Below are positions 27,061-64,000 of a stretch of 64,000 nucleotides of DNA, piece by piece. The position numbers were made by a program, and so were the translations under genes. Each line of letters starts with the position of its first letter. Position 1 is the first letter of the stretch. The notes under the pieces are model-generated. The model made no database searches. It had not been told where the DNA came from and was given only the letters and a program-made list of their open reading frames with translations. The stretch is from Macrostomum lignano (lineage: Eukaryota), in NCBI GenBank assembly GCA_002269645.1, contig NIVC01000832.1, positions 1 to 64,000 on the forward strand, written 5' to 3'.

Positions 27061-27404
27061 TATCTCAGATGATTTATAACAATCTGTCTCAACTGGCTTC
27101 CCTAATTTAAATTTTTTGAATAATTGTTTGAGTGAGAAAATTTAACATAATATTAACATAATATTAGAAGTAGAATATGGGCAAGAGAACATGTTAGGAA
27201 TAAATACGGTGAACAATACAGACATTAAGTGCACGCTAAGTATTTAATGTACATGAGCATGTGGATAAATAGGTAATGAACAGGGGAGCAAAATTATAAA
27301 TAGTGATTATGAACCGGTAAGTAAAAATACATATTAGCATAAGCAATAGAGCAACATACATATGAGCAATGGATATTTAGCGTGAGAAAATGAGTAAATG
27401 TACA

Positions 27405-28727: not shown

Positions 28728-28772
28728 ATGTTACTAGGACTTAGCCAGAAAGCAAAATTATGTCTTACTTAA

Positions 28773-29861: not shown

Positions 29862-29944
29862 TGTAATGCTTTGGTTTTTAAGCTTTGGCTAACTCTGGAT
29901 TCTAGTTCTGGTTTTTATCCTAGTCTCTCTCCTGGCTCTGTGTG

Positions 29945-30082
29945 CCCTTTTATAATTTTTGACTTCCCCCCTGCTGAGTTAATTCAAACAAACTAACTTG
30001 TTTTAATCTGTACAAATTATCTTATTGGCCGTTGCGCAATAAAACACTTGATTTAAACCGCAACTGAATTCCTATTGGCTGA
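29945..30082 (-). promoter_or_regulatory. Internal promoter of ORF3 (TATA, two CCAAT boxes, TTGCGCAA)
   Basis: TATAAAA at 29954-29948, two ATTGG, TTGCGCAA at 30032-30039; the whole non-coding block is conserved at ~58590-58727. Confidence 0.65.
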
Positions 30083-31717: not shown

Positions 31718-31732
31718 AACTATTTTCCAGAT

Positions 31733-33553: not shown

Positions 33554-33562
33554 GTCATCTAG

Positions 33563-35901: not shown

Positions 35902-37002
35902 AGTTGTCACAGACGTGTTTCCTCCTTCTTCTAGATCCCACTAGATGTCACCAAGTTGTCGCAGACGTACTCGTTTCTAACTGCAATTTCACCTTAAAGC
36001 CACTGAGCCTTTTACAGACTTTCTGGTTCTTATCACTAAGCTGTCTATTTCTAGTAGTATTGGCTGCCCTAAACTATGACCTTTCTCTAATTTCACACGA
36101 TTTCTTGGAAACCTTGTGATAGCGTGTAGTCCCCGCGCGCAGTGGCGTACTCAGGATTTAGTTTTGGGGGGGGGGCCGCAATCCTTAGGGGCGCCAATGT
36201 TGGGTGTCTTGTGGGGGCGCCATTTGCCAATGTTGCGTGCTTAAAATTTAAATCATGAATATTGAACAATTTGAGCACTTTTGTATTTCGACTTGTACTT
36301 ATTTATTAGAAAATAACTATTATGCTTAATTTGTTTATTGGACTTTATGTATGATCACGTAGGAACAACCGCGAAATTGGCATTCAAGGCATCAATCAGA
36401 ATCGATTCAAATGCGCGCAAAAGTTAAGTACAATAACTAAACTCACATGCAAATATAGACAATATTTTGTACTGACAGATTAAAAAAACTCATAGCATGG
36501 GAAAGTCGTTTTACGATGTGAGAAATTTTCATTAAATTTGAGCATGAAAAGTTTCAGAGTAATGAGAAAGGTATGAAACATTCGTCGAATTTTGCACAGA
36601 CACTTCTATAGAAACTTTTCAAAGAAACATAAATAAATGTCCAAATATAATAGGCAACTCCTGAAAACACTGCACATATACTTTTATCGTCCATGCTTGC
36701 AGATTTTTTAAAGCAGTTTTCATTGAATAGAATGATCTAGAAGCCTCGCAAAATGACAAAGAACTTGTTTTACTACACCCAGTCACCCATTATTTCTTGG
36801 AAATCAACTAAGTATATAACAAGTATCTGTGAAAGTAATAAATAAGCCTATTTGAACAGCTTGCTAAAATGTCAATACACAGAATACGCAAAGCAGGAAA
36901 ATGTCAATACATAAGATCCGGTAAATGGCACCTACTACAATAGTATATGACGGCTCGTACTCGTACGAGCTAGGATCGCAAATTAAAACAATAGCTAACA
37001 CT

Positions 37003-40000: not shown

Positions 40001-40102
40001 ACGTTTATTTCTTCTACCTTCAGCTCCAGATAATTTTCTTTTTGTCGACATGAATCCGTCCAGAGTTTTTTTAAAGCTTATTTGCTTGGTTTTGCTTTGC
40101 AT
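37003..40102 (-). pseudogene. hAT transposase (ZMYM1-like: TTF Zn finger, DUF4371, dimerisation domain), frameshifted
   Basis: FPWLSVS..GVFCTPCVLF; LSLRGHR; GNFRALLRFR; QCYDGAAAMAS; LCETRFLERH; LATLPVSTCEPERVFSKLKR. Split across four ORFs. Confidence 0.93.
39465..39870. repeat. 48-bp in-frame coding VNTR (~8.5 copies, DNPAASAAALDVGGAP)
   Basis: GCTGAAGCGG recurs every 48 bp within the hAT transposase N-terminus. Confidence 0.92.
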
Positions 40103-42149
40103 AAGGAATATTCCGTGAATGAGTCAAACACAGACGCTTTTATTTACAAGTAAGCGTACGTTCATCATAGTACTTTCTTTCTACGTACTTTCAAGCGTAG
40201 CTCTTAGGGCTTAGGGCGTTGGGGGGGGGCAGGCAGTCCTTGTTTTGCCTCCTCTCTCTCAACTCAACCCCGCGCGATCGATAATGGACGGGAGACGGTT
40301 TGCTTCATGTGGTGAGGGTATGCACACGATTTTAATGTACAGCGGAGAGCTTTTTAGCTAACATGTTTATCAGTAGAGAATGGGTTGATTAAAGTCAGTG
40401 GAGAGTTGTCTATTTGCCAAACTTATTCAATTGATGTTAGAAAAATGTGTACATTCTGACTGACGCCAAGTACAAGCATGCATATAGAAAGCGAGAATTG
40501 AACAGCTAGTTATTTGCGAAGTTCTTAAAAATTGAGTTATTTCTGCTTAATGGAATGAAGAATTTTCAGTAAATGATTAGAATCTACATTTAGTATAGTT
40601 AGCTTTTCAAACTGATTAGTCATACCTTCATGATATTTGTTTCATTTATACGCACTTATTACAAAAACAAAATTAACTATCTGTTGGTGGGGCGTGGGCG
40701 CCTGTCGTTTGGTGGGTGGGCACCCTGTATCTTACAGTGCGCCCTTGTCTCTTAAATGGGCGTCCGTGTCCCTTAGGTGGGCGCCCCTATCATTCATCGA
40801 GCTTATACCCCATCGTTTCGTTGTTGGAGGGGCGCAATTTTTGTGGGGGCGCAATTTTTGTGTGGCCGCAATTTTTGTGCGGGGATCGATGGGCGGCGGG
40901 AGCTTACGGCACCGGGGGCACGTTTACCGCACGGGCGGTAATTTTTAGTGCCTTTTCTGATATTTTAGGCCCTAATTATTTGCAGCTTATATAAAGGTAC
41001 CTGTGCTGTGCCCCCTTGCCCTGTGCCCAGTGCCCCCCTAAAATATTAGGCTCTGCCACTCCCTGGGGAGGGGGCAATTTTAGTGGAACTGTGGGGGCGC
41101 AATTTTTGTCAGGGGGGGCAATTTTTGTGAGGGCGCAATTTTAGTGGGGAGGGGGGCAATTTTTGTGGGGGGGCATTTTTGTGGGATGCGCAATTTTTGT
41201 GGGGGGCGTAATTTTTTTGGCGGGCGATTGGGGGGGGGGGGGCGGCCCCCCCGGCCCCCCCCCTGCGTACGCCACTGCCCGAGCGGTAAGACACTGTCTA
41301 ATTTCCGAATTTTAGTCCGAAAGTCTAGCGTTTTCCGAGGATCAAGGGTGTCCAGCAGTAGCTAATCTATTCCTAATGGCTAATCCTTAATGTCTATTAT
41401 TAGCCCGCACGGCTTTCTTAGGATCTATACGATCTCGACCTCCCTACTCAGGTTTCTATTCTTGGTCTCCACGACCTCAAGTTTCCCTATTCAGATCCCT
41501 AATTCTTGGTCTCCACGACCTCAAGTTTCCCTATTCAGATCCCTAATTCTTGGTCTCCACGACCTCAAGTTTCCCTATTCAATAAATAAAATAGCGAAAA
41601 CAAGTCTTAGCGGAAGTTTAAGGTTGAACACTCCAATTACTAAGAGTTATTGAGTTTTTAGTTGAGAAACGAGGGTGAGCGCGAGTTGTATATTTGGCGG
41701 TCCAAGCTGTCTCTTTATATAATCGTTGACAAAGGAGGGGGGGGTGAACATAAGGCATTTAAACAAAAATAAAAAGGAATTTTTAACAAAGTATCGTTTT
41801 AACAAACCTGTAATTTAAACAAAAAGGGGAAGAAATTTGCTGATTGGCCAGGATAAAAAGTCGCGATTAGCTACTGTTATAAGTAATATAGATGATTTAT
41901 AACAATCTGTCTCATTAGAGAAATTTACACTGCCGCAACAGAGAGTGAGTACTATAGGACTCTAGCCAAACGCGAGAAACGTGAGTTCCAACAACAATAC
42001 ATAACAGATCTCTTCAAGAATCACAATGACTATTGTAAGTATTAAAAGGATATATATAGGCGTAGAATAGATGGTAAACAGCAAGAAACTAGAAATGTTC
42101 TGTTTTACTGTGTGAAAAAATAAACGAAGATGTTATCAATGCGATTGAA

Positions 42150-44552: not shown

Positions 44553-45358
44553 TGTCACGTTAATGGCGTAGTGGCTATGGCCCTCAAGAGGGCCGTTTTA
44601 ACGAGAGTTGTCGTTGTAGTCCAAAAGGAAGGTTAATTGAACAATGGCGGTGTAGCGGTTTCGTGTAGCGGTAGCAATTATTAATAGAGAATAGAAATTC
44701 ATTGTAGTCTGGCTCTTATATTTTCTCAAATTAATAATACAGTTACAGAGGCGATAACAGTATGGGCACTGGCGGCTGCAACAACGAGTTAATGATCAGA
44801 TGAGTAGACGATGGAGGATGGCAATGAGTCAATGGCAGCGAGTAGCGGTCGTGAGTAGGCAGAACGGTAGTGAGCTGGCGTTAGCCGTAGTAGAAGTACA
44901 AGTGGAACGCAGTGTGTAACAGGCTGGCCCAGACAGAGGAGCCGTGGCGAGAGATAAGGAGGCCCGAGGAGAGGAGGCAGACAGAAGGCAGAAGGCAGAA
45001 GGAGGTGAACGGACGACGGGACGAGAGGAAGGAAGAAAGAAAAAAAGAAAGTGAAAAACCCAGCCCGCCGCCAGACGGGGGGGGGGTTAATAAAGAGCGC
45101 AAAAGGGGGTAGCATAAACACGGAGAGCCTTTATTGGCTGGCGAGAGAATTTGAAATTATCGATCGTGCTAAAATTTACAGACGAACGCAAGGCCTACTA
45201 CCAAATACACAGTGAATTAGCAATTGATACAGATTATTAGCACGCTACTACAAGTAAACGTTAGAATAAACTATTGGAAGAATTAAAATGAAAAAATTGC
45301 AAGGGAAACTATAGTCCAACGGCCCTTTTGCGGGACCACTTATACTAGCAACGTCACA
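44553..45358 (-). mobile_element. Solo LTR (806 bp) with 5-bp TSD GTCAG, inserted in the Maverick
   Basis: TGTCACGT...ACGTCACA; GTCAG at 44548-44552 and 45359-45363; same family as 8577-9272. Confidence 0.88.
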
Positions 45359-45820: not shown

Positions 45821-46726
45821 TTATTCTCCATTCTCATCCTCAATAATGTATGTTATGGGATTTGAATAAACTATTTTCTTTATCCTAAACACTTCTGAAA
45901 TTTTCCAATAACCTCTTCGATCAAATTCAAACCAGAGTTTATTTGTGAGAGTACGATTGAACCTCTTAATCATTGCATTCTTGGACTCGCCATAAATTGA
46001 AAACATCTTGTTAATATATTCACCCCTTTCATCCTTCTTTCTAATGTATTTTGAAAACGAATATGGCTTGTACATATGCTGATTATATAACTCCTTGCCT
46101 TCATCTACACAAAGTCTCTCTGATCGTCTTCCTGATTCCTTAAATACTTTTTGGAAAGCTTCTGCAACTTCCGCTCCCGTCTTTGTTTTTAAAGGAACTG
46201 CCCAGGCGTAACGTGTAAAACCATCTATGATAGTGAGAGCATATTTGTAACCTCTTTCAGGTGGTAGGATAATGATATCTGCATTCCAAATTGTGTCTTT
46301 TGCATAGTGAATCATTTTTCTAAACAGTCTTGGTTTTCTATATTCCCTATGCAATTTTACTGCATCTTCATAGCTAAGACCCTTTCCGTATATAGTTAGA
46401 CAGTCTATACAATTGTTGGGGTTGTATGTATGAATTCCTAATCCAAACCGAACTTTAGTATTGATAATGCGCTTTACTAGATTTCTAATGAGTCTCTCCT
46501 TTACTGACAAGTCACTAGTTGGAATAGCATCTAAATCAGCTATCATTTTTTCATCAGCAATATGCTTCTTTGCTAAAGCTTCCTCTGGAGTTGAAGACGT
46601 CTTTTGAGCATCTCTATAGTTTTTGTCATGATAATAAGCAGTCGAATCGATTGGGTTGATTGGTAGACTGTCATACCGAGGTCAGTCTGTAATTGGATTG
46701 AGTCTTTGGTCTAAATTTGTACCGGG
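45821..46726 (-). pseudogene. PLA2 C-terminal half in frame with a Maverick rve integrase (inactive)
   Basis: PGTNL..PINPIDSTAYYHDKNY..HIADEKM..KVRFGLG then WNADI..LTIIDGFTRYAWAVPLKTK..LCVDEGKE..IKRFNRTL; catalytic E appears as K; internal deletion. Confidence 0.88.
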
Positions 46727-46973
46727 CAGTTGATCCTCAATCTTTCGAAAGAGGCTGGACTTTATCTTAAGGCATCATCAGGATTGACCAGATCCTTCAG
46801 CCCCACCCCCATAAAGTCTCTGAATCTTCTCCCATATCCTTGTCAACTAAATGGACGTACCATAGGTACTCGATCAAAGATCAGACTTAGGAGCTTGGCT
46901 GCGGATTTCCACCATGTCCTCAAGCTTGTTACCGTTGGGAACAGGAATTACCTGTGTTCCTTCAGAAGATTTC

Positions 46974-47487
46974 TCAGCTGAAGTGGTACTTGAGGCTTTT
47001 GAAGGTTCGCCATTCACTAAGCACTTGTTTAACCTTGGTTATAATGTTTGTGTATTGATCCCCATAAAGAAATTTCAATGCAAATTCGCCTGTTACAAGG
47101 GTGATTCCATTGTCTAGTAAAATATTCTTAGGTTCGTTTTCAGTTTTATTGATGCATACATAAAACAACTGGTAGGTGGGATAAGACTTTTTATAGTCTA
47201 ATAGTTTCCTTTAGTTACTTTCACGACTTAAGGAATTGTCTGTGTTATCAGAAGATTTAAGCTCTAATGCAATCTTTAGCTCAACGTGAACCAGGTCAAT
47301 CTTTTTACCTTTTTGAATCCAAAATATTTTTCTGCTAAAAATTCATATAGTCTACCTAGTCTCATTTGAATAACTTTAATCTTGTGTGAAATTATTAGCT
47401 TTTCTTGAAATAAATCGCAAAGAATTGGGTTATACCCCACCTTGTCGTCAATTTTTTCAAGAGAATTTCTCTAATTTTTTGCTCCAT
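46974..47487 (-). pseudogene. PD-(D/E)XK restriction-endonuclease-like gene (about three frameshifts)
   Basis: Reconstructed: MEQKIREILLK/KIDDKVGYNPILCDLFQEKLIISHKIKVIQMRLGRLYEFLAEKYFGFKKV/KIDLVHVELKIALELKSSDNTDNSLSRE/KLLDYKKSYPTYQLFYVCIN...; ID-x10-ELK pattern. Confidence 0.55.
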
Positions 47488-47595
47488 TTTTACTTTACAA
47501 AATTTAACAAGTGCTTATCGATCGCCCTGAAGGGACGCGAGCTCTGCTCGATGACTAGCAAGGACATTGACTTTCCTCACTCAGGCCACAAGGTA

Positions 47596-47730
47596 ACCTG
47601 CAAAAGAATACCCTGGAATATGAAATTCTCCAGGATATTTTCCAGTAGAGAAGATGGGTTGCAGTTTTGTCATAGCTGACTGAATGTCTAATGCAGAACC
47701 AAGAAATAGTGGTTTATTGAAGGCCATTTT
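47596..47730 (-). pseudogene. N-terminal half of the Maverick PLA2 gene
   Basis: MAFNKPLF...GEFHIPGYSFAG joins PGTNL at 46726 to give the YxGPG calcium loop. Confidence 0.8.
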
Positions 47731-47980
47731 ATAGAGATTTTTTATTTCTTTATTTTTACTTGTAAAGTGTTTGTATACATTCCATTGAATACTTAATAGA
47801 CTGAATTTTAAGACAAGTCGAGACAATAATCCAAAGCGACATGTTACACAAAACAGATCGCTGATAAAAGATTTTGGTATATTTTAAAAGAAACTTATAA
47901 GACGATGCATAACAATCCTTAGTCACAGTCCTTACAGTCCTCCTTAGTCGCAGTCACAGTGATAGTCCTTAGTCACTCAT

Positions 47981-48152
47981 GTTGAGCAGCTTGGTGTTGA
48001 GCAGCTTGGTGTTGAGCAGCTTGGTATTGAGCAGCTTGGTGTTGAGCAGCTTGGTCTTGAGCAGCTTGGTGCTGAGCATCTTGGTGTTGAGCAGCTTGGT
48101 ATTGAGCAGCTTGGTCTTGAGCAGCTTGGTCTTGAGCAGCTTGGTGTTAAGC
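47981..48152. repeat. 15-bp minisatellite (GAGCAGCTTGGTGTT), ~11 copies
   Basis: Directly visible; reads QHQAA repeats on the minus strand after PPTYEDA*. Confidence 0.92.
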
Positions 48153-48632
48153 ATCCTCGTATGTCGGAGGTGCCTCTGGAACGTCTACATCTAGCGAGCG
48201 CTCGATTTCTAGTTGGCGTTGATTTTCAAAGATAGAACGCTCCTTCGCAATGGTTTTTTAATTAGCCTAAGCATCGCTATGTCGTTCTCAATTTTGTCGA
48301 AGTTCACGCGATAATGCTCAAGGAATTGATTCTCATTTGTAGACGTGACGAAGCTAGTATTGGGGTATTTTGTGTAAATCAAACCTCTCAAATTGTTTCT
48401 CTCTTGTGTGCTCACAAGTATTTTAGCATGCCTAGTTGGATTTCCGGGCATTCTGTTCGTTTGGAATGAAAGCTGATAATAAGCAGAGGACAATTGTTGT
48501 GGATAATTTGTTTTGGGTATACCCTTAAATTCTGTCTAAAATGTCTTATGCCAGCCGCTAATTGGTTGCCACTGCCCTGCCATTGCCTTGCCACTGCCCT
48601 GTGGCAGTGACAGATTTTTTCTCTCTAGAGTG

Positions 48633-48718
48633 AGTAGTAGTGTGTTATACGGGGCTGAGTCATCCAGCGAGCTGGCGCGCAATGCGCCCGAGCAATAAGT
48701 GTGGCATAGCCCCGTATA
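48633..48718. other. Partial copy of the AGTAGT hairpin cassette
   Basis: AGTAGTAGTGTGTTATACGGGGCTG...TAGCCCCGTATA; ~85% similar to 49704-49802; right arm truncated. Confidence 0.85.
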
Positions 48719-49703
48719 TTTCTTTATCAGCCATTTCAAGCAATGTGAAAAAATAATTTGTTAAGGAACGTGGAAACTAGAAAAAATGAAAAGCCAGATT
48801 CTCAGGGCAGCAAAGATTTAAATAAATATACTCCAGAATCTTCTTGAAGTGGGTTGCAAATGCATGCTGTAGCAGCTTGGAGGGGAGTTGATGAATGGCT
48901 GTTCGCAGCTAATCTAAACCTTTAATTCTTTGCATGATGCTGGAGGCTTTTTGAGTGAGTCAGAGAGAATAGAAGACAGAGGTGATGGAGATATGTAAAG
49001 TAAAGCGATATGAAAGAAGCCATGATTCTTAGTCATCGTGATAACAATGCTGTCTACAATTCGAATACATTTCGTCCCACAGGGTGAAGGAGAATTTTTT
49101 GGAATTCAGAAGTAATTATATTGTGCAAAATCTGAATCAGAATTTATTCATGTTTCAGCAAGCCAATAGAAATGTTAAGTGCTGCTTTTAATTGTTGCAG
49201 AGTTGACAAGTGGCAGTTTTGTTATAGCTGACTAAATATCTAAAGCATTTCCTAGAAATAATGGTTTACTGAAGGCCATTTTATATATATAAAATTTACT
49301 ATCGTTAAATTTGATGACACTTTCATATTGTATATACCTGAAATTGCATTAAATTGACCCGTGAATCCAACTTTTCTCATGGTTTTAGAGCTGGAATCGT
49401 GGAAATTGCACTTTTTAAAATTTTTGAAAATTACAAAAAATCGCTGTTTTCAGACCATTTTCACCAGTTTTTAGTAACTTTTCACCTGTTTTTAGTGATT
49501 TTCAAAATGAGTGAGGGCATGAGGGCGAGGGCACCCTCCTTTTAAAAAGTATAAAAATTCCGGAAAATCTGTGTTCTGTGAAATATACCACAGGCCAATG
49601 CCCCCCACATGCCCTCACCCTCAACACCCTCACTCACAGATATATGTATATTTATATTTTTATATCTATCACACACACACCCTTGAAACTCTGACCTCCT
49701 GGT

Positions 49704-49802
49704 AGTAGTAGTATGTTATAAGGGGCTGAGTCATCCAGCGAGCTGGCGTGTAATGCGCCTGAGCAATAGGTGTGGCGCAGCCCCTTATAACATACTACTA
49801 CT
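49704..49802. other. 99-bp fold-back with Maverick-type AGTAGT...ACTACT ends
   Basis: Perfect 25-bp inverted repeat (49704-49728 / 49778-49802) around a 49-nt loop containing small internal stems. Confidence 0.92.
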
Positions 49803-51679
49803 CAGCCAAACTCTAATAAAGACCAGTAAATAATTTCAACAATTGTACTTTTTAGAGTAAAGCCTAGTAGCATTCAAAATAGTAAAAAACAAAGAGCATT
49901 AAAAAATATATTTTAACCCTAAGTTTAACAGAAAGTTCAAACAATTGTCTTAAAATGTGTAAAATAGATTCTGTCACAAAATGGGATCAAAAACTTTTTC
50001 TAGGCATTTTAAGTCACTAAGTTGTGATACTAAGCTTACATCTAAGGAATTCCCAGAATCTCAAGAAAATATTCAGTCCAAAGATATAAAAAACACTGTA
50101 GACAATAAAGCATTTTCAGTATCATAGATGGTGTTTTAAAAAATTAATAGCATAAGAGAAATTGATAGTTATTACCAAATACCTAATTAACCCTTAAGGG
50201 TAACAATTAACAAAACTTAAGGGTACAAATTGTCTCTTTATCTAGGCACTAGACATTTTGCAACAAAAATATTTAATTCTCACACATTAATATAATTTAT
50301 ATATTGACAATAGCTTTACAAAAACAGCTACTTACACATTCGTAGTGCATATACTCAGAAACGAAAAATTTAATAGTTTGTCTATTTAGAAAATATAAAA
50401 TTTAAAAAATACAAATATTTTTTAAATATTTAAACTTCAAATAGGTTGACATTTCCTATCAATTCTAATTTAAAGCAAAGCATACTATTTGATATTTTTG
50501 ACAATAATCAATTATCAAGTGGCAATAGCCTACAGCAGAAAATTCATGATGCATAATAATGGTATTGTCACAGACGTGTTTCCTCCTTCTATATCCCACT
50601 AGATGTCACCAAGTTGTCGCAGACGTAATCGTTCCTAACTGCGATTTCACCGTAAAGCCACCGAGTCTTTACAGACTTTCTGGCTCTTATCACTAAGCTG
50701 CCTATTTCTAGTAGTATTGGCTGCCCTAAACTATGACCTTTCTCTAATTTCACACGATTTCTCGGAAACCTTGTGATAGCGTGTAGTGCCCGAGCGGTTA
50801 GACATTGTCTAATTTCCTAATTTAGTCCGAAAGTCTAGCGTTTTCCGAGGATCAAGGGTGTCCAGCAGTAGCTACAGCTCTAATGCCTAATCTCCTAGCG
50901 CCTAATACCTATTATTAGCCAGTACGGCTTTCTTAGAGTCTGTACGACCTTAAATTTCTCCTTATTTTTAGACCTCTATCTTGGATCTCCACGACCTCTA
51001 ATTTCTCCCTATTCAGATCCCTAGTTCTGGGTCTCCACGACCTCTGGTTTCTCCCTATTCTGATCCCTAGTTCTGGGTCTCCACGACCTCTGGTTTCTCC
51101 CTATTCTGATCCCTAGTTCTGGGTCTCCACGACCTCTGGTTTCTCCCTATTTAGATCCCTAGTCCTGTATTCGTTCAAAGAACTAAGACTCGCAGGTTTC
51201 AACTTACGTTTTGGTTTGAATGTCAAACGCTGCTTCTCCGATTGAGAGCGAGCTCGCGAAGATTCGCGGAAGAGCAGTTACTTTTATTTTTGGTAAATTG
51301 TTTCGTTTATATAGTGGATAAAACTCAATTTGATTGGTTGAAATTAATTATAACAAAAATAGTTTACGAAATTTTAACAAAGTATTAAACTCCATTGGCT
51401 AAGATTATTTAAAACAAAGCAATTTAGGGATTTGAACAAGGAAATTCACTGATTGGCTGAGTAAAAATAGCTCATTGAACCCGCTTAAAACTACTATTAG
51501 TAAGAATAAAAGATCGACCCTATTACAGCTGGCTTCCCTTAATTGGATTTTTGAATTAATTATATGTGAAAAAATACAAATTACATGAATAATACTATAA
51601 GTAGCATACGAGAACAATACAGATACTCAGCACCATAACGCAAATGAATAGCATGAGTGAGCTAAATATTAAAGGAAAA

Positions 51680-51945
51680 TAGCATCATAGCACAGATTAA
51701 GCAATATGAATAAGTACAGATTAAGCAAATGAATAAGTACGGATTAAGCAAATGAGTAAAGTACAGATTAAGCAATTGAATAAGCAAAATAGCACAGATT
51801 AAGCAATATGAATAAGTACAGATTAAACAAATGAATAAGTACGGATTAAGCAAATGAATAAGTACAGATTAAGCAATTGAATAAGCAAAATAGCATCATG
51901 ACACAGATTAAGCAATACAGATTAAGCAATACAGATTAAGCAGAT
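51680..51945. repeat. Short-unit (~20-22 bp) tandem array in the 3' UTR of Gypsy copy 2
   Basis: CAGATTAAGCAA(T)ATGAATAAGTA units at the same position as the 40/42-bp satellite in copy 1. Confidence 0.85.
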
Positions 51946-54208
51946 TCATGAGTGTCAGCAAAAAATGTTAATTACGCCTATTACCTATATTCATACCGAA
52001 TTCTGTTGGCCAGCTGTTCTTGACTTGCCATCCCAACTTGTCGGCCATCCAGCAGACCTCGAACCGCAGCTGTGCCTGCTGGTAAAACCAAGCCGACTGG
52101 GTGAGATCGTGCAGAGCATACGTAACAGCCCTTCGCCAGGCCGCTATACACTGCTCATGCGTACAGTTGGCCTGGAGATCCTCGATTGCCGTTTCTGGCT
52201 CTTTGGTTTGGGGCAAGAAGCCTCTCCCATCTATTCTAAGCAAAGCCACGCTGAGCAGGTAAGACTTGATCTTCATGATGGCCTGCTTGTATGGTTCTTG
52301 AAGATGAGTCGGGACTTCCTGCAGCACAGCCGTGAAATTAGCCCTTAAGGCCATTGGGTTCTGCGACCGGTGGCTTCTTGGTGTCACTGCCGAGGCTGCC
52401 TGCATTCCAACGGCCGGAGCCTGAGGCTGCGCCGATGACGTACTTTGCGATGACATGACTGTTGGCTGCGGCCGTGACTGCTGTCGCGGCAGAATGGATC
52501 TAGGCTGTTTGATGGGGTCTACGACAATTGACTGCCACAATTTGACTGCCACAATTTGACTGCGGTCAATTTGACTGCGGACAATTTGACTGCCGAGCAA
52601 TTTGACTGCCGACAAAATGACTGCGGACAAATGACTGCCAACAATTTGACTGCCGACAATTTGACTGCCAACAAAATGACTGCCGACAAAATGACTGCCA
52701 ACAACTTGACTGTCGACAATATGACTGCGGCAATTTGACTGCCGACAATATGACTGCGGCAATTTGACTGCCAGCAAAAAGACTGCGGCAATTTGACTGC
52801 CAAGCAATTTGACTGCCGATAAAATGACTGCGGCAATTTGACTGCGGACAAAATGACTGCCGACAAAATGACTGCCAACAATTTGACTGCCGACAAAATG
52901 ACTGCCGAGCAATTTGACTGCCTCAAATACTACACGTACATCCTCTTATAAATGTATTGATCATATTTATGCAGGACTAAAAATTCGTTCTTTACGAGTA
53001 ACGATGCAAGCTACATTTGCCTTTCAGCATTAAATGCATGTGTTATGACGAATGTTTAAACGGATCATCTATACATAGCTGTGGTTAGTTGAGCGGAGTG
53101 CTCTTTATAGAGCTAGCTTACCATTAACTTTAGCTTTTGACTGATTAATCCAAATATACTAAATATTAGTCTATTAGGCTATTAATAGTTTTATAGTACG
53201 AGTCTATGGTATTGCTTTTAAATCTGGAAGATTCCATCCAATATATGAGATTAATATGACATAGGAGAAAGAAAGAACCTTTAAATGTGGAAACCTTGTG
53301 CATGTCGATTTAAAAAGTCAGCAAACAATTTTTTTATAGCAGAGTAACAAAACATGCTAAAATAACAGAAATAAGCGTTTATTATTAAGAATACATAACT
53401 ATAGGAAGATACATGGATGTTATATAGAACTTTAAAACTGCCTCAGGAAAAATACACCACCGAATTGGCAGGTTAGAAGTCTATAAAAACGCCATGTCTA
53501 TAAAAAATTAATGTCTAACAAAAGATTCATTAGTTGCCACAGCGTTTATTATTAAGAATACATAACTTTGAGAAGATACATGGATGCTATATAGAACTTT
53601 AAAAATGCATCAGGAAAAATACACCACCGAATTGGCAGGTTAGATGTCTATAAAAACGCCATGTCTATAAAAATTCATGTCTATAAGATTCATTAGCGAA
53701 GTGCTGAGATGTTAAGGCTTGTGGGGGGATTGTAGAGATGCGAAGGCTGAGAGGTCAGAAGCTAAATGTAGTGGTTTATTCAAGTTTTTATTATTTTTGT
53801 TGGCTCCACAATGGGGAGACGCTGACTGCCAGTTATTAATTTAATCGTAATAGTTATTTGAATTCAACCCAAACTGTGAAGCTAAGTGGAGGTCTAGAGT
53901 CTGGACTTAAAAGCGGTGAGGCAAAGAATTGAATGTGACGTAACGTAACAACTTTAATTAGGGGTAATAAGAAATATGACTATAGAGGATCCGTAATAAT
54001 AATTTGATCTTTTACAGGGCTACCGGCTAAGGCTGTGCGACGAATGTCGTTTTTAGCTCGTAGGTAGGGTGGTAAGGGCAAAGGGCTTGATAAAAATGAC
54101 GAATAGAAAACTGTTGCTGCCAGAAATTCTACAGCGACGATTGTCAAACGAGTTGAATATAAAACATTGTAGCATAGCTTAGGTCAATAAAAAACTAAAT
54201 TATTACGA

Positions 54209-55750
54209 TCATACTTTCAGATTGTGGGCGATGCCTCGCAGGAAGTCGCAGGTTGGGTAATCTGCTGTTTCATAGCTCTCAGTGACCGCCTTAATTCGGG
54301 CATCAGTCTCTTTGTAGCGACGCTTCCGATCAGGCCGCGCACCCGCGATAGCTTGCTCGATCTTCACTGCCTGAGCTTCTTGCTCAGCTTTCAGCTGATT
54401 GAGCAATTTGAAGAAATTTGGGCTATGACACTCAAGAAGAGCCGAAAAACGACGGTGCCATGCTTCAGCGCTGTTATTGGAACGCATTTGACCTTCAAAT
54501 GTCCGCCGACGTACATTCCATGTTTCGATTGGAAATCTTGGCTGCTTTCGCTGGCCACCAGCACGTGGGCGACCGATCCAAGTGTCCTCGAAATAGTCGG
54601 AAATCGGCAATGCATCCTCCGGGAAAGCTGCAGCGGTAGTTAGCTGAACGAAACAGTCTGGGACGTCCGTTGGAGGTACAAATGCCAAGGCTGGCAGACA
54701 ACGGACCCATAAGGCAAATCCACCATCCACTTCATCATACCTTCTCTTCAATCCAGAACTAATGACTCTTTTGTACACACACTGGCAGAGATGAAAGAGG
54801 CAACCGGTTGACACTACACCAAAAACGCTGCTAATAGCATTTTGCGCTGCCTTCTCAAAATCTTTCATCCATTCCTGTGGACTCAGGCGTGGACACAGGC
54901 GGCGGATCTCCTGAAACAGACAGATATACGATGCTTCCATCTTGTTCGAAAGCAATGCATACACAAGCGGGCGAACATGGCCATGCACAAGCGCGTGCAC
55001 TGTATACAGCTGCTGAAAAAGCGCAGGAGCCGCGTCAAACGTGCCATCACTGAAAAAGCTTGTTGCAACATTCATTAGCTCAAGAGAGCGGTCGGTTGCA
55101 AAAATTAAAATTCGATGCTGGCCTGGACCACTGTCAAATTGAAGAAATTTCTCTCCATTGATGGAAGAAAATGCTGGTGGGATAACTAGTGCTTCGAGGC
55201 TTGCAGGCTGAACTGGAAATCCCTGTTCAGTGTTTCTAACTAGTTGCACCATTCGCTTCAGATTTTTCTCTGGCCCAAGGCCTACAGCGATCGATGCAGA
55301 AGCACCTTGCGTGCAGTAGTTCAAGATAGTAGCAGTTGAATTGGCTGTTGATGCTGATAAACTGCGAACTTCATGCCTAATGTGCCGCACTACTCCTTCG
55401 GTGCCATCAGAGCCATGATTATGGCTATGGATAAGTCGTACCAAATTAGTGCCTTCATCATGAGCACGACAAGGACAGCCATATATCCTTTTCTTAGTGC
55501 AGCTATAAAATGCAATATTACCAGTAGCACTCATTTTCTCAAAATGGTAACAGTAGCCATCATGAGAGATAGCAGTCTTTCTTTTCTGAGTGGGCACTTC
55601 AGTTACATGAGCAAATTCATCATCTTCTTCCTCATGTTGATTACCTTGCTGTTGATTGTTTCTATTATTTTCATTCATATTAAATTCATTTGAACTAGGT
55701 AGTTTAACTGCAATGGCAAATAATGGAGAGTAAAAGTTGTTTAAAAGCAT
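54209..55750 (-). CDS. MULE transposase with FLYWCH-like domain, apparently intact (~490-510 aa)
   Basis: HDGYCY..FYSC..GCPCRAH..HSHNH; FFSDGTFDAAP..QLYTVH; DFEKAAQNA; GCLFHLCQ; YFEDTWIG; RSNNSAEAWHRRF; no stops. Confidence 0.95.
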   Translation of the reverse strand: MLLNNFYSPLFAIAVKLPSSNEFNMNENNRNNQQQGNQHEEEDDEFAHVTEVPTQKRKTAISHDGYCYHFEKMSATGNIAFYSCTKKRIYGCPCRAHDEGTNLVRLIHSHNHGSDGTEGVVRHIRHEVRSLSASTANSTATILNYCTQGASASIAVGLGPEKNLKRMVQLVRNTEQGFPVQPASLEALVIPPAFSSINGEKFLQFDSGPGQHRILIFATDRSLELMNVATSFFSDGTFDAAPALFQQLYTVHALVHGHVRPLVYALLSNKMEASYICLFQEIRRLCPRLSPQEWMKDFEKAAQNAISSVFGVVSTGCLFHLCQCVYKRVISSGLKRRYDEVDGGFALWVRCLPALAFVPPTDVPDCFVQLTTAAAFPEDALPISDYFEDTWIGRPRAGGQRKQPRFPIETWNVRRRTFEGQMRSNNSAEAWHRRFSALLECHSPNFFKLLNQLKAEQEAQAVKIEQAIAGARPDRKRRYKETDARIKAVTESYETADYPTCDFLRGIAHNLKV

Positions 55751-56829
55751 TATGTTATAAAATATATGAATAGAAAAAGTATTTATATATAATTAATACA
55801 CTGCATTAAGAGCAACATATTTTTTAGGTTAGACCTACTTCTAGCTTTTTATGACTTAATGCAATCATATAAAGTATGTTTAAATAAAATATGGAATTTA
55901 AATAGGCCTAAGACTTAAACAATCCATGATAATAATTTATGTAGTTTTCGAGTTTTTTAACATTGTATAAACTATTGATGCCTGTAATTTTAGCATAAAT
56001 ATTAAGCATCAAAATAATTGGTACAATAAATTTAAATGGTAGATATACATTAAGACTATAGACAATTACAAAAAAGGACGATCAATGCAGGATCAATTTT
56101 TTATAAAATAACTACTATATACAATGTTGTCCTATTTTAGGCAATAAAGCAAGCTTGGCAAAAAGTAAATAAATAAAAGAAAATAATCAATCTAAACTAT
56201 ATTAGGTTTTCTATATCAACAAATTTTGTCAGGGCTCAGTAAATATGTTAAATGAAGCAAGAAATTGTTCTTAACTTCTTATAGCCATAAGGCCTATATT
56301 GTTTGATAAATTATAACATTTGAAAGGAGTAAAAATACAAAACTAGGTATTTAAAAGCTTAAATATGTAGAAAAGTATGAAAAACAAATGATGGAAAGGC
56401 ATGGTAAAATATTAAGTTAGTAAGTTAGCAGAATGTTTGCTAAAATTCAGACAGAAGATAGAATATTTTCCTAAAATGTGGGAATGGATATGGATATTAA
56501 TTTAAATTCTGGACATAACTGTCAGAGAAGCTTATAAGCAATGATTTATGACTGCAAAAAATAGCATAAACCATATATGCCTACAGCCTATGTTATAATT
56601 ACAAATATAGCAAAATTATATATAGCTATGAAAATCCTACTAGTATGAATTCTAGGAAAATTGCATAAAATAGAGAAAAATGCAGTTCAGAATCAATATT
56701 AGAGATGGACGGAAATTTCGGGCATTTTCATTGCAAATTTTCGGGTAGCTACAGTTTCGATTTCGGGTATTACAATTTCGGGTACATTGATACCCGAAAT
56801 TTCAAGCTCATTGTCTTCTTAAATCTAAA

Positions 56830-57180
56830 GCTGAGTGGATCGATCGAGAGTAGAAATGAGAGAGAGAGATGAAAGGAGAGATGAGAGATGAGAGATGAGA
56901 GAAGACAAGAGAGGGAGAGAGTATAGAAGAGAAGAAAAGAAAAGGGAAGAAAGGAGAAAGGAAAGAAAGGAGAAAGGAAAGAGAGGAGTCAAAAGAGGGG
57001 AAGAGAAGAGTACAGAGGAGAGAGGTGAGAGAACATACGAGTATAAGAGTAAGATGAGTCGATGACAGATAAGAGAGGGGAGATGAGAGAGCAGAGACGA
57101 GAGAGAAGTGAGAAAACAGAAGAGAAGATAGAAGGTTCAAAGGATGCAAGGGACATAGGGATCGAGAGGCAGAGGTAGAG
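56830..57180. repeat. GA-rich low-complexity tract inside the MULE
   Basis: Purine-only runs (GAGAGAT, AGAAAGG). Confidence 0.85.
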
Positions 57181-58714
57181 GCCAGAGTTTTTCTGACATT
57201 CTGCGCCGCACCCCAGCCAACAATATCAATAGTTTGGCTCCAATCCTAATTTTCCACGAATGTAATCTACGTTATGTTTAACTCTATCCTAATTCCTAAC
57301 TAATAATAAAAGTTTTTGCTTGAGTTTAAACTCAGATTTTAGAATATATGCAAAATAGTTCCTAAGATTAGAATTCCCATTTCCCACGGTTCAAAATCCG
57401 AGGGTTTCAACAGCCGTTACAGCTTGTATAAAGGTTATGTGTCCTGTTCTGCATCATTCTAGCTCGTAAATACAATATTTCACTACATGCATAGACTTAA
57501 AAGGGTTGACAGAGTGCTAAACTTTAGGAGCATCATTTTTCCGGCAGTCATTTCGCTGGCAGTCAAACTCCTCGGCAGTCATTTTGTCCGCAGTCATTTT
57601 GTCGGCAGTCAAATTGTTGGCAGTCAAATTGTCCGCAGTCAAATTGCCGCAGTCATTTTATCGGCAGTCAAATTGCTCGGCAGTCAAATTGCCGCAGTCT
57701 TTTTGCTGGCAGTCAAATTGCCGCAGTCATATTGTCGGCAGTCAAATTGCCGCAGTCATATTGTCGGCAGTCAAATTGTTGGCAGTCATTTTGTCGGCAG
57801 TCATTTTGTTGGCAGTCAAATTGTCGGCAGTCAAATTGTTGGCAGTCATTTTGTCCGCAGTCATTTTGTCGGCAGTCATATTGCTCGGCAGTCAAATTGT
57901 CCGCAGTCAAATTGACCGCAGTCAAATTGTGGCAGTCAATTGTCGTGCACCCTTTGATGGTAATACCCTGAGTCGCGTTCGCTCCTGGCGGCTGTCGCTT
58001 GCGAATGCTGTTGCTTATTTCGACTGGTCTGTTGGCTTGATCACGTAGCAATGACGCTCGAGCCTGCGGATTATGCGGTACAGGCACCTTCTGTGCTGCC
58101 GGCCGTATTACCACAGACTTTAGTCGGGTGCTTCTTCCTTGGCCGATGGCTGCCTCTGCTTCTTGATTTTCAATAACTATCGTTTCTGACGCTTCCTGTT
58201 TGTTCTTAGCTATTGTTTCTGACTGGTGGGCGACTACTGCCTGCTGCTGCTGCTGGGCGACTACCGCCTCTTGCTGCTGCTGCTGGGCGACTACCGCCTC
58301 TTGCTGCTGCTGCTGAGCGACTACCGCCTCTTGCTGCTGCTGGTGGGCGACTACCGCCTCTTGCTGCTGCTGGTGGGCGACTACCGCCTCTTGCTGCTGC
58401 TGGTGGGCGACTACCGCCTCTTGCTGCTGCTGGGCGAATACCGCCTCTTGTCCACCTACTAGGATAGTAAAATCTCCTAATAAATCTTCAAAGTCTGCGA
58501 AAAGATCTATTTCATCCATAGTTAACTAGTTTAATTTTTTTTGACTGTTAGATTTAAATTCTATCCTGACTCCTTCCTGACTAAATGTCCCCTTTTATAT
58601 AAATTGACTTCCCCCCGCTGATTTAATTTAAACAAACTAACTTGTTTTAATCTTTGTAAATTATCTTATTGGCTCTTGCGCAAAAAACACTTGATTTAAA
58701 CCCCAGCTGAGTTC

Positions 58715-61700
58715 TTATTGGCTGACTAAAAGTCTAGTTTTTCTAACAACCTCCATAACGGTAGCCAGCTTTTTTAGATAACACTGGCATCTGACGGGCG
58801 GCCTAGTGCGGCTGCGTGTGTTATATGGTTTAGTTTTATTACCCTCTTTGTCTGGCGTACCCCCATTCTCAGGGTGGCCCGCATGCGCGCCTTCTCCTTC
58901 CCCTTGTTCTGTTTCGCGTCTGTTATCGATCGTTACTTCTCCTCCCTCTCGCTCTGACCTCTCCGTTTCCTCTTCCACTAGGCTCTCATGTTGCATATTA
59001 TTTTCTATCTCAGCTTCTGACTCTGATTCATTCTTATGTACCAATTGTTCATTTTCACGAATCTTGCAAAACCATTTCGGCTGTTCCTCATCAGAGCTTT
59101 CTTCTCCTAATTCGATAGCTGATTCTTCTAGTTTATTCTTTCTGACGTGGCTTCCCTTGCTTGATTGTCCTAACTCCTGCTGATTTCTTCCATTTAAATG
59201 CTTAGTTTTCGTCTGGCTTTTCTTATTAATAATTTCTACTGTCTCAGCGCTCTCCTGGCTTCCCTTATCTATTGGCTCTCTCACAGAATTTGGCACTGGG
59301 GCCATGTTATCCCTATGTACTAATAACTTGTTGCCTACTAACTTGCCTTCTTGTTCTTTCTGAATCTTAAAAACTACTTCTGAGATTTGCTTAAGCACTC
59401 TAAAAGCGGCCCTTCTTTTCCTATGAAACTTATTAGACTCGTCAATGTTAAGTTGTGGATTATTAATTAACACTAAGCTTCCTACTTCAATAACCTTTGG
59501 CTTTCTCTGATTTTTGGCGTCTGTCTGCCTTTTGTCATGCACTTTCGCAAACTTTTCCTTAACTATTTTTCTGGCACTCTCTAATCTTTCGGCATGCTCA
59601 GCTACATAGGTCGGATAACTAGCATATTGGTTTGGCTCTCTAAGTTCGCTGTCTATGGGCAAAACTGCCTCCCTGCCAAACAATAAGAAATGCGGCGAAT
59701 AGCCTGTAGTCTGATTAACGCTAGTTCGAACTGCAACTAAGGCGGCTGGAATTAATAAATCCCAATTGCTATGATCTTTCTCAATCAGGCATGTGACTAT
59801 TGATTTGACCTGCTTGTTAAATCTCTCAACTAAACCATTGCTTTGTGCGTGATATGGAGTTGTGAAAGTATGCTTCACACTGTACAACTCACAGAATGCA
59901 CTAAATTGTTTGCTAGTGAATGCCTTGCCATTATCTGTGTGAATCCATTGACATTGGCCATATTCACTAAATACTCTTTCTTGCAACAGCTTAATAATTG
60001 TATCAGCTTTTTGATTGCGCATTGGAAATGCAAATGGATAGCGAGTATTGCTGTCTACTATTGTCAACACATATTGATGGCCTCTTTTGCTAATCTTTGA
60101 AATTGGCCCTATCACATCTATGTGTAATCGGTGAAATGGCTCACTAATTGGAAATGACTGAATCGGAGCTTGTACTTTATGGCCTCTTTTGCTTTCTAAG
60201 CATGGGATGCACTCTGCCACATGCTTTTCTACTGCGGCTACTAAGCCTGGTCTACAGAATCTCTCTCTAACTCGCTGAACTGTTTTGTCTCTACCTAAAT
60301 GTCCTGCTAGCGGGCTATCATGCAGATCGCTAAACACTAGCTTATCTAAAGACTTAGGCAAAACTATTTTCCAGATTCCTTCTTCTTCTATAGTCAACAG
60401 ATTCCTCTCTAACTTCATTTTCTCATATTTTCGTCTCAACTGCTTCAGTTCGACTGACTCATTTTTCTGAATTGGCGGGACTGACAGGTTTTCTTGCTTC
60501 CACTCTATTAGTGTGCAGATTGCTGTGTCTTCCCTCTGAGCTTTAACAATTTGCTCCTTCTTCAATGGTACTTGCAAGTAGTCAGTTAGTAATTTTGTAA
60601 CTTTAGGTATCTCACTCTCTCTGTGATCAGGTTCAGTGTCTCTGTTCTGTTGCGTTAAGCTTGAACTCAGTGCTGACACATCTTTTACCTTCGCACCTTC
60701 TACTCCTGAAATGACTAATGGCTTGATCCTAGACTCTGAGTCCTCGGGATGCGAAGTCTGCATCTCTCTTTCTCCTTCTTCTACTGTCTCGCCTACCGCA
60801 GCATTCACGCTGTCTCTCGGATTCACGCCTTTTTCACTTTCATAGGCTTTCACGCCTTGCTTAATCTCACTTTCATAGGCTTTCACGCCTTGCTTAATCT
60901 CACTTTCATAGGCTTTCACGCCTTGCTCAATTTCGGTTGCCTCAGCTACTTCTGCCGGTCTTCTGGACAAACTGTCCGCGTTGGAATGTTTGGCACCGCT
61001 TCTATGCTCAATATCGAATTGAAATTCATTTAAGCGTTCCACCCAACGTCCTAGAATCCCTTGGGCCTCTGTTTGCCTCAACAACCATAAAATCGCCTTA
61101 TGATCTGTTCGCGCTAAAAATCGCTTTCCTATCAGATAAAATCTAAAATGCTTCATTGCATCTACTAACGCTAATAATTCTTTCCTAGTTATTGGATATC
61201 GCTTTTCTGTCTCTTTCATAGCACGACTGAAATATGCTATAGGTCTCTCGATGCCATCTAACTGGATTTGGCCTAGGCAGGCCCCTATGCGTCCATCACT
61301 AGCATCAGTATCTAAGACCATTCTAACATTCTCATCGTCTACAAACTCTGGATAAGCTAATACTTCTGTTGACATCATTCTTCTCTTAAGCTCCTCAAAT
61401 GCTTCATCATGAGCCCTAGTCCACTTTGCCTGAAAGTTCTGCACTCCTTTCCTAGTTAATTGAAATAACGGATGTGCAGCCTCAGCATAGTTCCTAACAA
61501 AGCGACTATAATAATTGCATAATCCTAGGAAACTTCTTAGCTCTTTTACATCTTTTGGCTTTGGCCAGCTCCTAATGGCTTCTATCTTAGCTTCATCAGT
61601 TCTAATTGCTTCTCTTCCAATTACATGGCCTAAATATTTTAACTCGCTATGGAATAGATTGCACTTCTTAGCTCTTAGCTTCAGTCCTGCACTAATTGAG

Positions 61701-62174
61701 CTTCAGTCCTGCACTAATTAATCTTTTAAATACTTCTCTGAGGTGTTCTAAATGATCTTCAAACTGCTTAGAATAGGTCACTATATCATCTATGTATGAC
61801 ATGGCATATTTATGCTGAATGCCTGCTAATACTAGATTCATAAGCCTCTGAAAAGTACCTGGGGCATTAGATAAGCCCTGAGCCATAACTTAGTGCTCAA
61901 ACTGACCTCTTGTTAATGTTGAAAATGCAGTCATAAACTTGTGTTCCTCTTTTATCGGAACTTGCCAATAACCAGAATTTAGGTCAAGGCTGCTAAAGTA
62001 TTGACTGCCTGTTAAGTTTGAAAATGTCTCTTGAATATTTTGCAGCGGATACGGAAAATAATTCACTCGTGAGTTCAGCACTCTAAAGTCACTAACTATT
62101 CGAATAGTACCATCTTTCTTAGGTGTTGAATAAGTCGAATAGCATGGCCTAATTAGGTTCTTAGCTAACATGTC
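58715..62174 (-). pseudogene. pol: Gypsy copy 2 pol: open 909-aa RH-IN frame plus damaged RT fragments
   Basis: 58715-61444 is open (RH + IN); RT pieces 61445-62174 are disrupted by a short duplication near 61679-61714 and other indels. Confidence 0.95.
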
Positions 62175-62462
62175 AGTAGTATATAAAAAGTACGCTTCTA
62201 GACCCAGAGGCACCTATCAAACAGGTGATTTGAGGGGGTAGAGGGGGGGCACGAGGGGGAAACCAAAAAACACATTTCAACACTAAACAGCACAATTAAA
62301 CACAATTAAACACCCCCAACACCCCCAACACAACCAACACTCTCTAATACTACTAACACTTCCAACACTTCCAATAATTTTCCTCGTGTCGCCCCTTTTA
62401 TTACCCCCTCAAATCATCTGTTTGATAGGTACCGGATCTATAAGCGTACTTTATATACTACT
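62175..62462. other. 288-bp fold-back with AGTAGT...ACTACT ends (probable terminus of a Maverick-like element)
   Basis: Arms ~62175-62240 and 62402-62462 are inverted copies (~85%); CA-rich loop; starts exactly where Gypsy-2 RT stops. Confidence 0.85.
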
Positions 62463-62518
62463 ACACTGTAACCCCAGGCCGCGCTGCAGGCGCGAAGGGT
62501 CTTTTTCTGTTACTAAAA

Positions 62519-62818
62519 ATGAACCGAGTTTACACCTTTTCTGTTAGTAATACTTTTGAGACTGTTGCTAAAAATTCAGAGATAATAAAACAGCATATTT
62601 TGAATGGAATAATTGATGAAGTTTATTTAAAAGATAACGATGGAACTGACCTAAAACTTTATCCCCTAGAGTTGGATGGTTTGTATGATTTAGAACAAGA
62701 GGGTGAGTTAATATTTCGACTTGGAGATTATTTAAATTCAGACGATTGGGAAGTTCGTTCAACGGATTCCGAATCAACAAATAGTTCTTATGAAACTAGT
62801 GATTCAGATAATCTGTGA
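62519..62818 (+). CDS. Unknown acidic 99-aa protein, virus-like
   Basis: AAAAATG start, AT-rich codons, first ORF after the terminal hairpin. Confidence 0.6.
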   Translation: MNRVYTFSVSNTFETVAKNSEIIKQHILNGIIDEVYLKDNDGTDLKLYPLELDGLYDLEQEGELIFRLGDYLNSDDWEVRSTDSESTNSSYETSDSDNL

Positions 62819-63032
62819 AAAATATAACTAAAAAATGAACATAAATCGTATCAATGATACGCATGCTTTGCATGATTATTCCTACATTGGCAATTAATCA
62901 TGAAAATTTAAGTCTTGTTACAGTTGAACAATTGTCAATAATGATATTAGTAACTATAATGGTAATAATATTGGTTTTGTTAGTTATAAAAAATCGCCCC
63001 GAAGGGTCGCGGACTTCGTCCGATTTATTACC

Positions 63033-63657
63033 ATGCTGCCTAAATTATTCGGTTATATAAATTTTATTCGAAAAAATAGATCAAGAAATTGAAAAAAGTC
63101 TAAAAGATCTAAAACAGAAGATAATCGATGGTTTAATAAAAAAAGTAATATATAAAGGAATAAAAATATATCCATTAATACCATCTGAAATTGAAGTATT
63201 AGACATTGAAAGAATAAAAAAGAGAGATTCAATCAAGCATATGAGATATTATTTTTCCAACCAAGAAGAATCTGATATAGTTAAATTGAGTATATATTTG
63301 AATAGTTATGGAGTTTTTGCACATTCCTCACCAAAGGGTTTTATAAGTAATCGCGATATTATATATAAAGAATATTCTACACCAATAAAAAATATCATCA
63401 CATATAATTTACCACAACACGATCAAAAAGAACTTAGCAATTATATTTTTGATAAGGTTGTAGAAATCAAAAAGATGATAATAAAGAGCTTAATAAAACA
63501 TGTAGAAATTCGAGGAGTAAAAATATATCCAATAACCCCAATTGAAATTAAAGGGCTTGTAAGTGAATTCCAAAAAACGGAATATAGAGAAGCCATAGAA
63601 GATTATATTACCAAATATTTGAATAATAATGAGTTAATGAATAACAGACTTTTATAG
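63033..63657 (+). pseudogene. Unknown ~208-aa protein with an internally duplicated motif; one frameshift
   Basis: The reading frame is open from 63061 to 63657; deleting one T in the run near 63062 links it to the ATG at 63033. Confidence 0.55.
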
Positions 63658-64000
63658 ATTTTTTAAATCCACAACACATTATCAGTATCATTATGAATTT
63701 CAACAAATAATTGAAACTTTTAAATATTCAGATTCTACACTATTAAAAAATATTTTAACAGACAAAGAATTAAAACATGAACTTGAAAAAAATGACATTG
63801 ATATGTTAAAAAAATAGCTAGCCTTAAGTAACTGTTCGAACTTAGTTCGCAGATATTATCTGATTCTCATAAAACGATCCCAATATTTCTTCACCATCTT
63901 TATCAGCAATGATATAGGTTGTAGGATTTGTATTTAAACTTTTACTGATCGTAAATTTCTCACTTATTTTCCAATATCCTTTTCTTCCTTTTTCAAACTT

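Follow-up and report, generated by a model that had tools for sequence, protein, structure and literature searches.

A putative Maverick/Polinton-type element end with a terminal fold-back inside a Gypsy pol gene of Macrostomum lignano

The stretch of Macrostomum lignano DNA analysed here, which we call the window, comprises the first 64,000 nucleotides of contig NIVC01000832.1 (assembly GCA_002269645.1). Its last 1826 bp adjoin the interrupted pol gene of a Gypsy element, Gypsy-2; the features of the locus are collected in Table 1. Comparing Gypsy-2 with the other copy in the window, Gypsy-1 (29913-33556), we observed 92.9% identity up to CATGTC, where the match breaks off and AGTAGT follows from 62175. 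The alignment thus bears out the initial annotation, which had the Gypsy-2 reverse transcriptase end directly before AGTAGT, and fixes the break between 62174 and 62175 with an ambiguity of at most one letter. We mapped contigs from four of 16 runs (X1, X3, X4 and X6, from three studies) on positions 61700-64000. At the loose ends found at 62175, Gypsy contigs of runs X1 and X3 carry on with the sequence of Gypsy-1, so that the interrupted locus is a normal Gypsy pol. Among the rows listed (32 of 1242 pieces and 24 of 200 loose ends), no contig bridges the Gypsy/AGTAGT junction. Alternatively, Gypsy pol may have been joined to a Maverick end at a deletion or recombination breakpoint, with no Gypsy sequence resuming downstream; this would agree with the crowding of decayed nested elements in this region, with the almost complete loss of one LTR from Gypsy-1 and with the lack of a far-end junction among the contig rows listed. 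However, so precise a break at a canonical end motif would be rare for a random deletion, and we consider this explanation improbable.

Table 1. Features at and around the putative element end (positions within the window)
Feature	Position	Strand	Evidence
Gypsy-2 pol (RT, RNase H, integrase), split in the RT region by the element	58559-62174	-	Match to Gypsy-1; Pfam RVT_1, RT_RNaseH, rve
CATGTC, candidate 6-bp target site; second copy predicted beyond 64000	62169-62174	+	Sequence; 6-bp target duplication of Mavericks (passages of PMC8097293)
Terminus of the element, with the AGTAGT motif and the outer arm	62175-62256	+	blastn, arm alignment; contigs
C/A-rich loop, unpaired, with short tandem units of 9-10 bp	62257-62379	+	Folding, repeat analysis; exact contigs
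Return arm: the terminus in inverted copy, 81% alike; ends in ACTACT	62380-62462	+	blastn, arm alignment
High-depth family block, with GC-rich motif (62480-62500) and ORF A	62470-62812	+	Contig depth, loose ends
ORF A, 99 aa, start in TAAAAATG context	62519-62818	+	No homologue, no fold match
GC-rich short motif, also at 47523 in the neighbouring Maverick; dispersed in many contexts	62993-63024	.	Repeat comparison
ORF B, 198 aa between stops, 138 aa when counted from the first ATG; repeats itself internally (two-fold)	63061-63657	+	ORF list
ORF C, 58 aa	63641-63817	+	Matchless in searches
C-terminal 52 aa of PLA2-rve integrase, pointing towards the element end	63842-64000	-	Homology; alignment A1
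99-bp terminal palindrome with perfect 25-bp stem, ends the neighbouring Maverick	49704-49802	.	Comparison feature

Both Gypsy copies carry an extra ORF with glutamine/alanine-rich repeats downstream of pol (28773-29861 and 51968-58525), and long tandem arrays (27293-28800 and 51640-51960) lie between this ORF and the LTR. The third ORF of Gypsy-2 is interrupted by a FLYWCH-MULE transposon (52537-57939, ORF 54209-55750), whose terminal inverted repeats of about 400 bp are made of 15-bp tandem units. The Gypsy-1 LTR that corresponds to 50566-51526 is split by an insertion (36140-41275) with a hAT dimerisation domain (37003-38187).

The terminus at 62175, the one end within view, begins with AGTAGT. 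According to passages of PMC8097293, the terminal motif of Mavericks is 5'-(AGT)2 or (AG)3, of which (AGT)2 is the commonest and goes with 6-bp target duplications. On the minus strand, the final 159 bases of the window code for the C-terminal part of a Maverick-type integrase, 1.67 kb inside the element end. This tail matches P0001, P0002 and P0004 at 77%, 73% and 72%, respectively, and is 61% identical over 36 residues to the rve integrase at 45824-46681, which belongs to a decayed Maverick; searched on its own, the 52-residue piece matched none of the Pfam families. Its relatives fuse an N-terminal PLA2-like domain to the rve domain, and the element accordingly appears to encode a Polinton-type rve integrase, a class assignment made from these 52 residues against PLA2+rve proteins, with the catalytic core expected outside the window. 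Given that an integrase C-terminus lies behind AGTAGT, the locus reads as a Maverick/Polinton end and not as a stand-alone MITE. Within the visible 1826 bp, we found no protein-primed family B polymerase and no capsid, packaging ATPase or protease gene.

The AT-rich plus-strand ORFs that had been noted behind the fold-back are present, at three positions. ORF A has no counterpart in Pfam, PHROG or the atlas; its structure model (pLDDT 62) found no fold match, the best scores being E 0.09 in the PDB (a PB1 domain), E 0.075 in BFVD and Z 4.6. For ORF B, whose model reached a pLDDT of 39, none of 203 candidates was a credible homologue, and the atlas gave unnamed clusters alone, with low recognition. 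A HMMER match of ORF B to a protein of eight repeats, which we take to be a cystatin repeat, was discarded as summed noise at 23% identity. Rfam searches of 47000-64000 gave no matches.

The first 288 bp (62175-62462) had been described as folding back on themselves. Their arms do so strongly: over 82 and 83 bp they share 70 identities, with 7 mismatches, 9 internal gap letters and a longest exact run of 15 (blastn E 7e-16), and their score of 103 compares with a maximum of 37 among 2527 other 288-bp windows. Folding of the DNA gave z = -12.1, and none of 100 shuffles was equally stable. It is, however, the arms alone that pair; the 123 nt between them (A56 C42 T21 G4) remain essentially open, and the arm alignment has gaps 10-12 letters from the element end. 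Local inverted repeats of at least 25 bp within 600 bp occur three times in the window, the fold-back included; the third is a perfect 26-bp palindrome at 14969-14994. Contigs identical to loop and return arm were recovered in X1 (62290-62459) and X3 (62290-62495), that is, in runs of two studies, one of which may be the source of the window; hence the fold-back is no assembly artefact.

Read on its own, the 288-bp unit has the correct inverted ends (AGTAGT...ACTACT) and no coding content, and could be a stand-alone MITE-like derivative lying beside a Maverick fragment or inserted at its end. A preprint (bioRxiv 10.64898/2026.10.13.758929) describes elements of this sort inserted in tandem or within one another, and the end of the neighbouring Maverick is doubled. 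Yet the flanks of the unit, CATGTC and ACACTG, show no duplication, its low depth is untypical of a MITE, and the exact X3 contig extends 33 letters beyond the return arm into the family block. Sibling joints, moreover, connect the C/A-rich tract directly with that block. We therefore regard a MITE as very improbable. Taken together, the end motif, the integrase homology, the unduplicated flanks and the bridging X3 contig point to a Maverick/Polinton-type end, and the sequence supports the initial reading of 62175 as the left end of such a DNA element, apparently inserted within Gypsy pol.

The depth of the mapped contigs, taken relative to the exact contigs of the unique cassette, places the element within its family; being summed contig depths, the following ratios are no copy numbers, and the mapping is blind to termini less than 88% alike. 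Depth was 227-631 times that of the cassette in the bin 62470-62546, 162-262 times in the integrase bin, about 50-115 times at 62191, where most contigs have a one-letter gap, and 1.9-4.8 times in the return-arm bin. From bin 62393-62469 to bin 62470-62546 it rises 80-132-fold. In this genome, the element is one member of a high-copy family. Among the loose ends listed, those behind 62812 recur in at least three of the four runs and those on both sides of the GC-rich motif at 62993-63024 in all four; where the present copy has its low-depth cassette (62812-63826, about 1 kb, including ORF B), the loose ends show that other copies carry different sequence instead. Two further joints among the loose ends listed bypass the return arm, one linking 62374 with 62480 in at least three runs and the other 62283 with 62479 in at least two, each with a short side of 20-24 letters, and tie the C/A-rich tract straight to the family block.

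The loop itself is about twice as deep as the cassette, at 2.2 times in X3, 1.7 times in X1 and 2.1 times in X4, the X4 figure resting on a subtraction at 62341 (35) where a subtraction at 62345 gives 81; X6 is uninformative because of a hole in the loop. Given that the loop region has 45% GC and the cassette 25%, composition could bias this ratio. X1 lacks variant alleles at 63554-63580, so that those variants do not explain its doubled loop depth. The ratio is a hint of a repeat present at both element ends. From the low return-arm depth, the fold-back seems limited to few copies of a large family, and is doubtful as a family-wide trait; the family at large can probably do without it. We stress that most family termini are evidently less than 88% alike to the one at 62175, and could form hairpins too, which the mapping would miss.

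We propose that the element's retroviral-like integrase would have inserted it into a Gypsy copy, within the RT region, with a presumed 6-bp duplication of the target. The return arm would be a second, inverted copy of the terminal ~83 bp, lying ~200 bp inside the end. Template switching and end-into-end insertion are both able to make an inverted copy of a terminus, and one of the two would most likely have done so while the end of the linear element was being copied. The inverted copy would then have diverged, a passive passenger in the terminal repeat that a small subfamily carries. The arms differ by 19% and the loop and arm contigs of two studies are nevertheless identical; the divergence of the arms thus predates those copies, which is what suggests passive carriage in a small subfamily. 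Tentatively, we expect that the fold-back probably stands at both ends of subfamily elements. This reading as a whole, a Maverick end whose fold-back is a passively carried inverted copy of its terminus, is the one we favour, with moderate confidence.

The window contains a second Maverick, which ends in the 99-bp palindrome at 49704. A degenerate integrase start at 49279 is 523 bp away from the palindrome, which is therefore the right end of this neighbouring element, with the integrase pointing inward, and agrees with the earlier view that it, too, is a Maverick end. Near 47727, the main integrase start shows 86% identity to P0005. Inward of the integrase follow a small ORF resembling the post-integrase ORF of locus L001 (E 1e-5) and pieces of a protein-primed polymerase, 41.6% to the long ORF of locus L049. 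Within 47596-49802 the right end is doubled, the integrase starts at ~47727 and 49279 each being followed by a copy of the palindrome, intact at 49704 and, as a decayed direct copy of that end, at 48633-48718. The integrase is cut between its first 44 residues and the remainder by ~870 bp (46710-47580) of short orphan ORFs and the GC-rich motif shared with 62995. Host-like repeated sequence separates the polymerase pieces from the small ORF behind the integrase; it occurs at 44764-45358 and 8745-9272 (several pieces, 70-93% alike).

The ends at 62175 and 49704 share matches of 10-14 letters at most, as expected from the earlier statement that their sequences are unrelated. They had further been said to follow the same design in two independent families, and neither point survives. 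At 49704 stands a 99-bp palindrome with a perfect stem, whereas the 288 bp at 62175 fold back through imperfect arms around a long open loop. The two integrases, besides their 61% identity over 36 residues, share a motif in their tails that occurs in only four of 118 fetched proteins; the elements are therefore sister subfamilies rather than independent families. The perfect 25-bp stem of the sister at 49704 argues for recurring terminal palindromes in the clade.

As an alternative reading, the fold-back would serve as a replication origin, the terminal hairpin priming DNA synthesis after excision, with palindromic ends conserved in the integrase clade and tied to a D5-like primase-helicase. 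Both Maverick ends in the window (the decayed 48633 copy left out) open with a palindrome that directly adjoins the end motif, the two being unrelated in sequence, and the loop depth fits two copies per element. Passages of a preprint (bioRxiv 10.64898/2026.07.28.741278) link palindromes to replicases other than the protein-primed family B polymerase, and propose hairpin priming for the palindromes of Halocafeteria virophages and PLVs, with accidental origin as the stated alternative. A Prim-Pol/PriCT-2/D5-like primase-helicase gene, in pieces, lies at 24989-27060 (also 41915-42120) next to a 25-bp remnant of the Gypsy-1 LTR; this 25-bp LTR end occurs on both sides (41890-41914 is identical to 27067-27091), and Maverick polymerase pieces start beyond the LTR end at 41914. 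Since Gypsy-1 stands between the D5 gene and the Maverick remnants with matching LTR ends, it may have split one Maverick that carried both the primase-helicase and the protein-primed polymerase. Searches gave no link of the D5 gene to the neighbouring Maverick or to either end, however, and that element carries protein-primed polymerase pieces as well. For the fold-back at 62175, the imperfect arms, the gaps near the end, the 123-nt open loop, the low return-arm depth and the siblings that appear to lack the return arm all speak against priming, which we consider unlikely. A still bolder scenario, in which a probably animal Maverick clade with PLA2-fused integrase switched from protein-primed to hairpin-primed replication, its palindromes turning over between subfamilies, its D5-like primase-helicase copying the DNA, and hundreds of ~3.5 kb integrase-carrying fold-back satellites spreading with its help, seems to us decidedly unlikely.

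The reading of 41917-42120 as the C-terminus of the D5 protein was dropped, as no match in the searches supported it. Minus-strand fragments at 22958-23400 resemble, by eye, the P-loop region of a PIF1-type helicase and are possibly a Helitron remnant.

Outside the window, the A4 search returned 51 related loci, one viral, 47 metagenomic and three from genomes; scans of viral contigs with P0003, A2, A3 and the D5 piece yielded no confirmed relative. In none of the 51 loci could an element end bearing a terminal fold-back be verified, and as most are shorter than 4 kb, these missing ends are no test. In locus L015, AGTAGT precedes the integrase ORF by about 440 bp as a putative end, without a terminal hairpin. 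A single 22-letter terminus pattern, the common variant as read and not the exact window sequence, had no match in metagenome contigs. Near-complete Maverick-like gene sets (capsid, ATPase, protease, PLA2-integrase and Endo-VII polymerase) span 1900-14950 of L049 and 800-14650 of L050; in L050 we identified a double-jelly-roll capsid, an A32 ATPase, a weak match to an adenoviral-type protease and a long ORF bearing Endo-VII (polymerase). Both contigs are filed under bacterial genome bins, have eukaryote-like repeats at their flanks and are probably mis-binned eukaryotic DNA. An inverted repeat around L050 was rejected as its terminal repeat, since it looks like a host repeat occurring in several places.

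These loci bear on the size of the element. Published descriptions give Mavericks/Polintons lengths of 13-25 kb and target duplications of 6 bp (5-8 bp). Of the 51 loci, 10 have a capsid gene on the upstream side of the integrase, a position that in the 62175 element would fall beyond the window, and five have it downstream (L003, L004, L011, L023 and L029); in the 62175 element no capsid gene follows the integrase, so that both a long and a short form are compatible with what is seen. If the integrase starts ~520 bp from the far end, as it does next door, the element would measure 3.4-3.6 kb and end near 65,540-65,780. In our judgement, full length comes close to an even chance; a short integrase-carrying derivative of 3.4-3.6 kb is only slightly less probable, and loss of the far end is rather unlikely.

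How Mavericks and Polintons copy their ends is so far a matter of inference, not of observation. Sister elements with two unrelated palindromes, siblings apparently lacking hairpins and hundreds of family fragments together offer a natural setting in which to test whether hairpins at element ends act as primers or are accidental, which the 2026 preprint leaves undecided for protist relatives. Should the fold-back be an accident of one subfamily, the locus is an ordinary nested insertion; at present it seems a curious variant and no proven new way of copying DNA.

Parvoviruses and poxviruses have hairpin ends, and the terminus at 62175 resembles theirs in being an imperfect terminal fold-back that could prime synthesis. 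Unlike them, it shows no Rep/HUH nuclease or resolvase, and the element would integrate by means of its rve integrase. With animal Mavericks/Polintons, as described in passages of PMC8097293, PMC10748475 and, for adintoviruses, PMC8502044, it shares 5'-(AGT)2, a retroviral-like integrase, accessory ORFs near the end, many decayed copies and integrase relatives beside capsid, ATPase, protease and polymerase genes. It differs from them in a terminus that folds back on itself, and its integrase clade in the N-terminal PLA2-like domain, the closest members having no chromodomain. In the main texts of PMC8097293, PMC10748475 and PMC11131425, neither 'hairpin' nor 'palindrome' is used, and 'hairpin' is likewise absent from that of PMC8502044. 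Across the titles, abstract openings and text passages covered, we found no description of terminal fold-backs in animal Mavericks, and the end reported here may be new to the literature in that respect. If the element is short, it would be an integrase unit without a morphogenesis module, like the transpoviron-like stand-alone modules of Polisuviricotina described in passages of bioRxiv 10.64898/2026.10.13.758929; those modules, however, pair a DDE integrase with pPolB, whereas the visible part of the 62175 element has no replicase. The idea of hairpin ends is itself already in print for protist relatives: in bioRxiv 10.64898/2026.07.28.741278, virophages of Halocafeteria seosinensis and PLV subtype 4 have palindromic TIR ends next to their target duplications, the example being a compact 52-nt palindrome in all complete copies of its subtype, from a screen that allowed at most 4 mismatches and a 10-letter gap. 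As in those virophages and PLVs, the palindrome at 62175 lies at the very end of an rve-integrase element, flush with its terminus and beside the target site. It is nonetheless no compact near-perfect palindrome, given its 7 mismatches, 9 gap letters and long loop, and in place of a protist host and a 52-nt palindrome we see arms of 82/83 bp at 81%, a 123-nt loop, apparently few copies and, probably, an animal.
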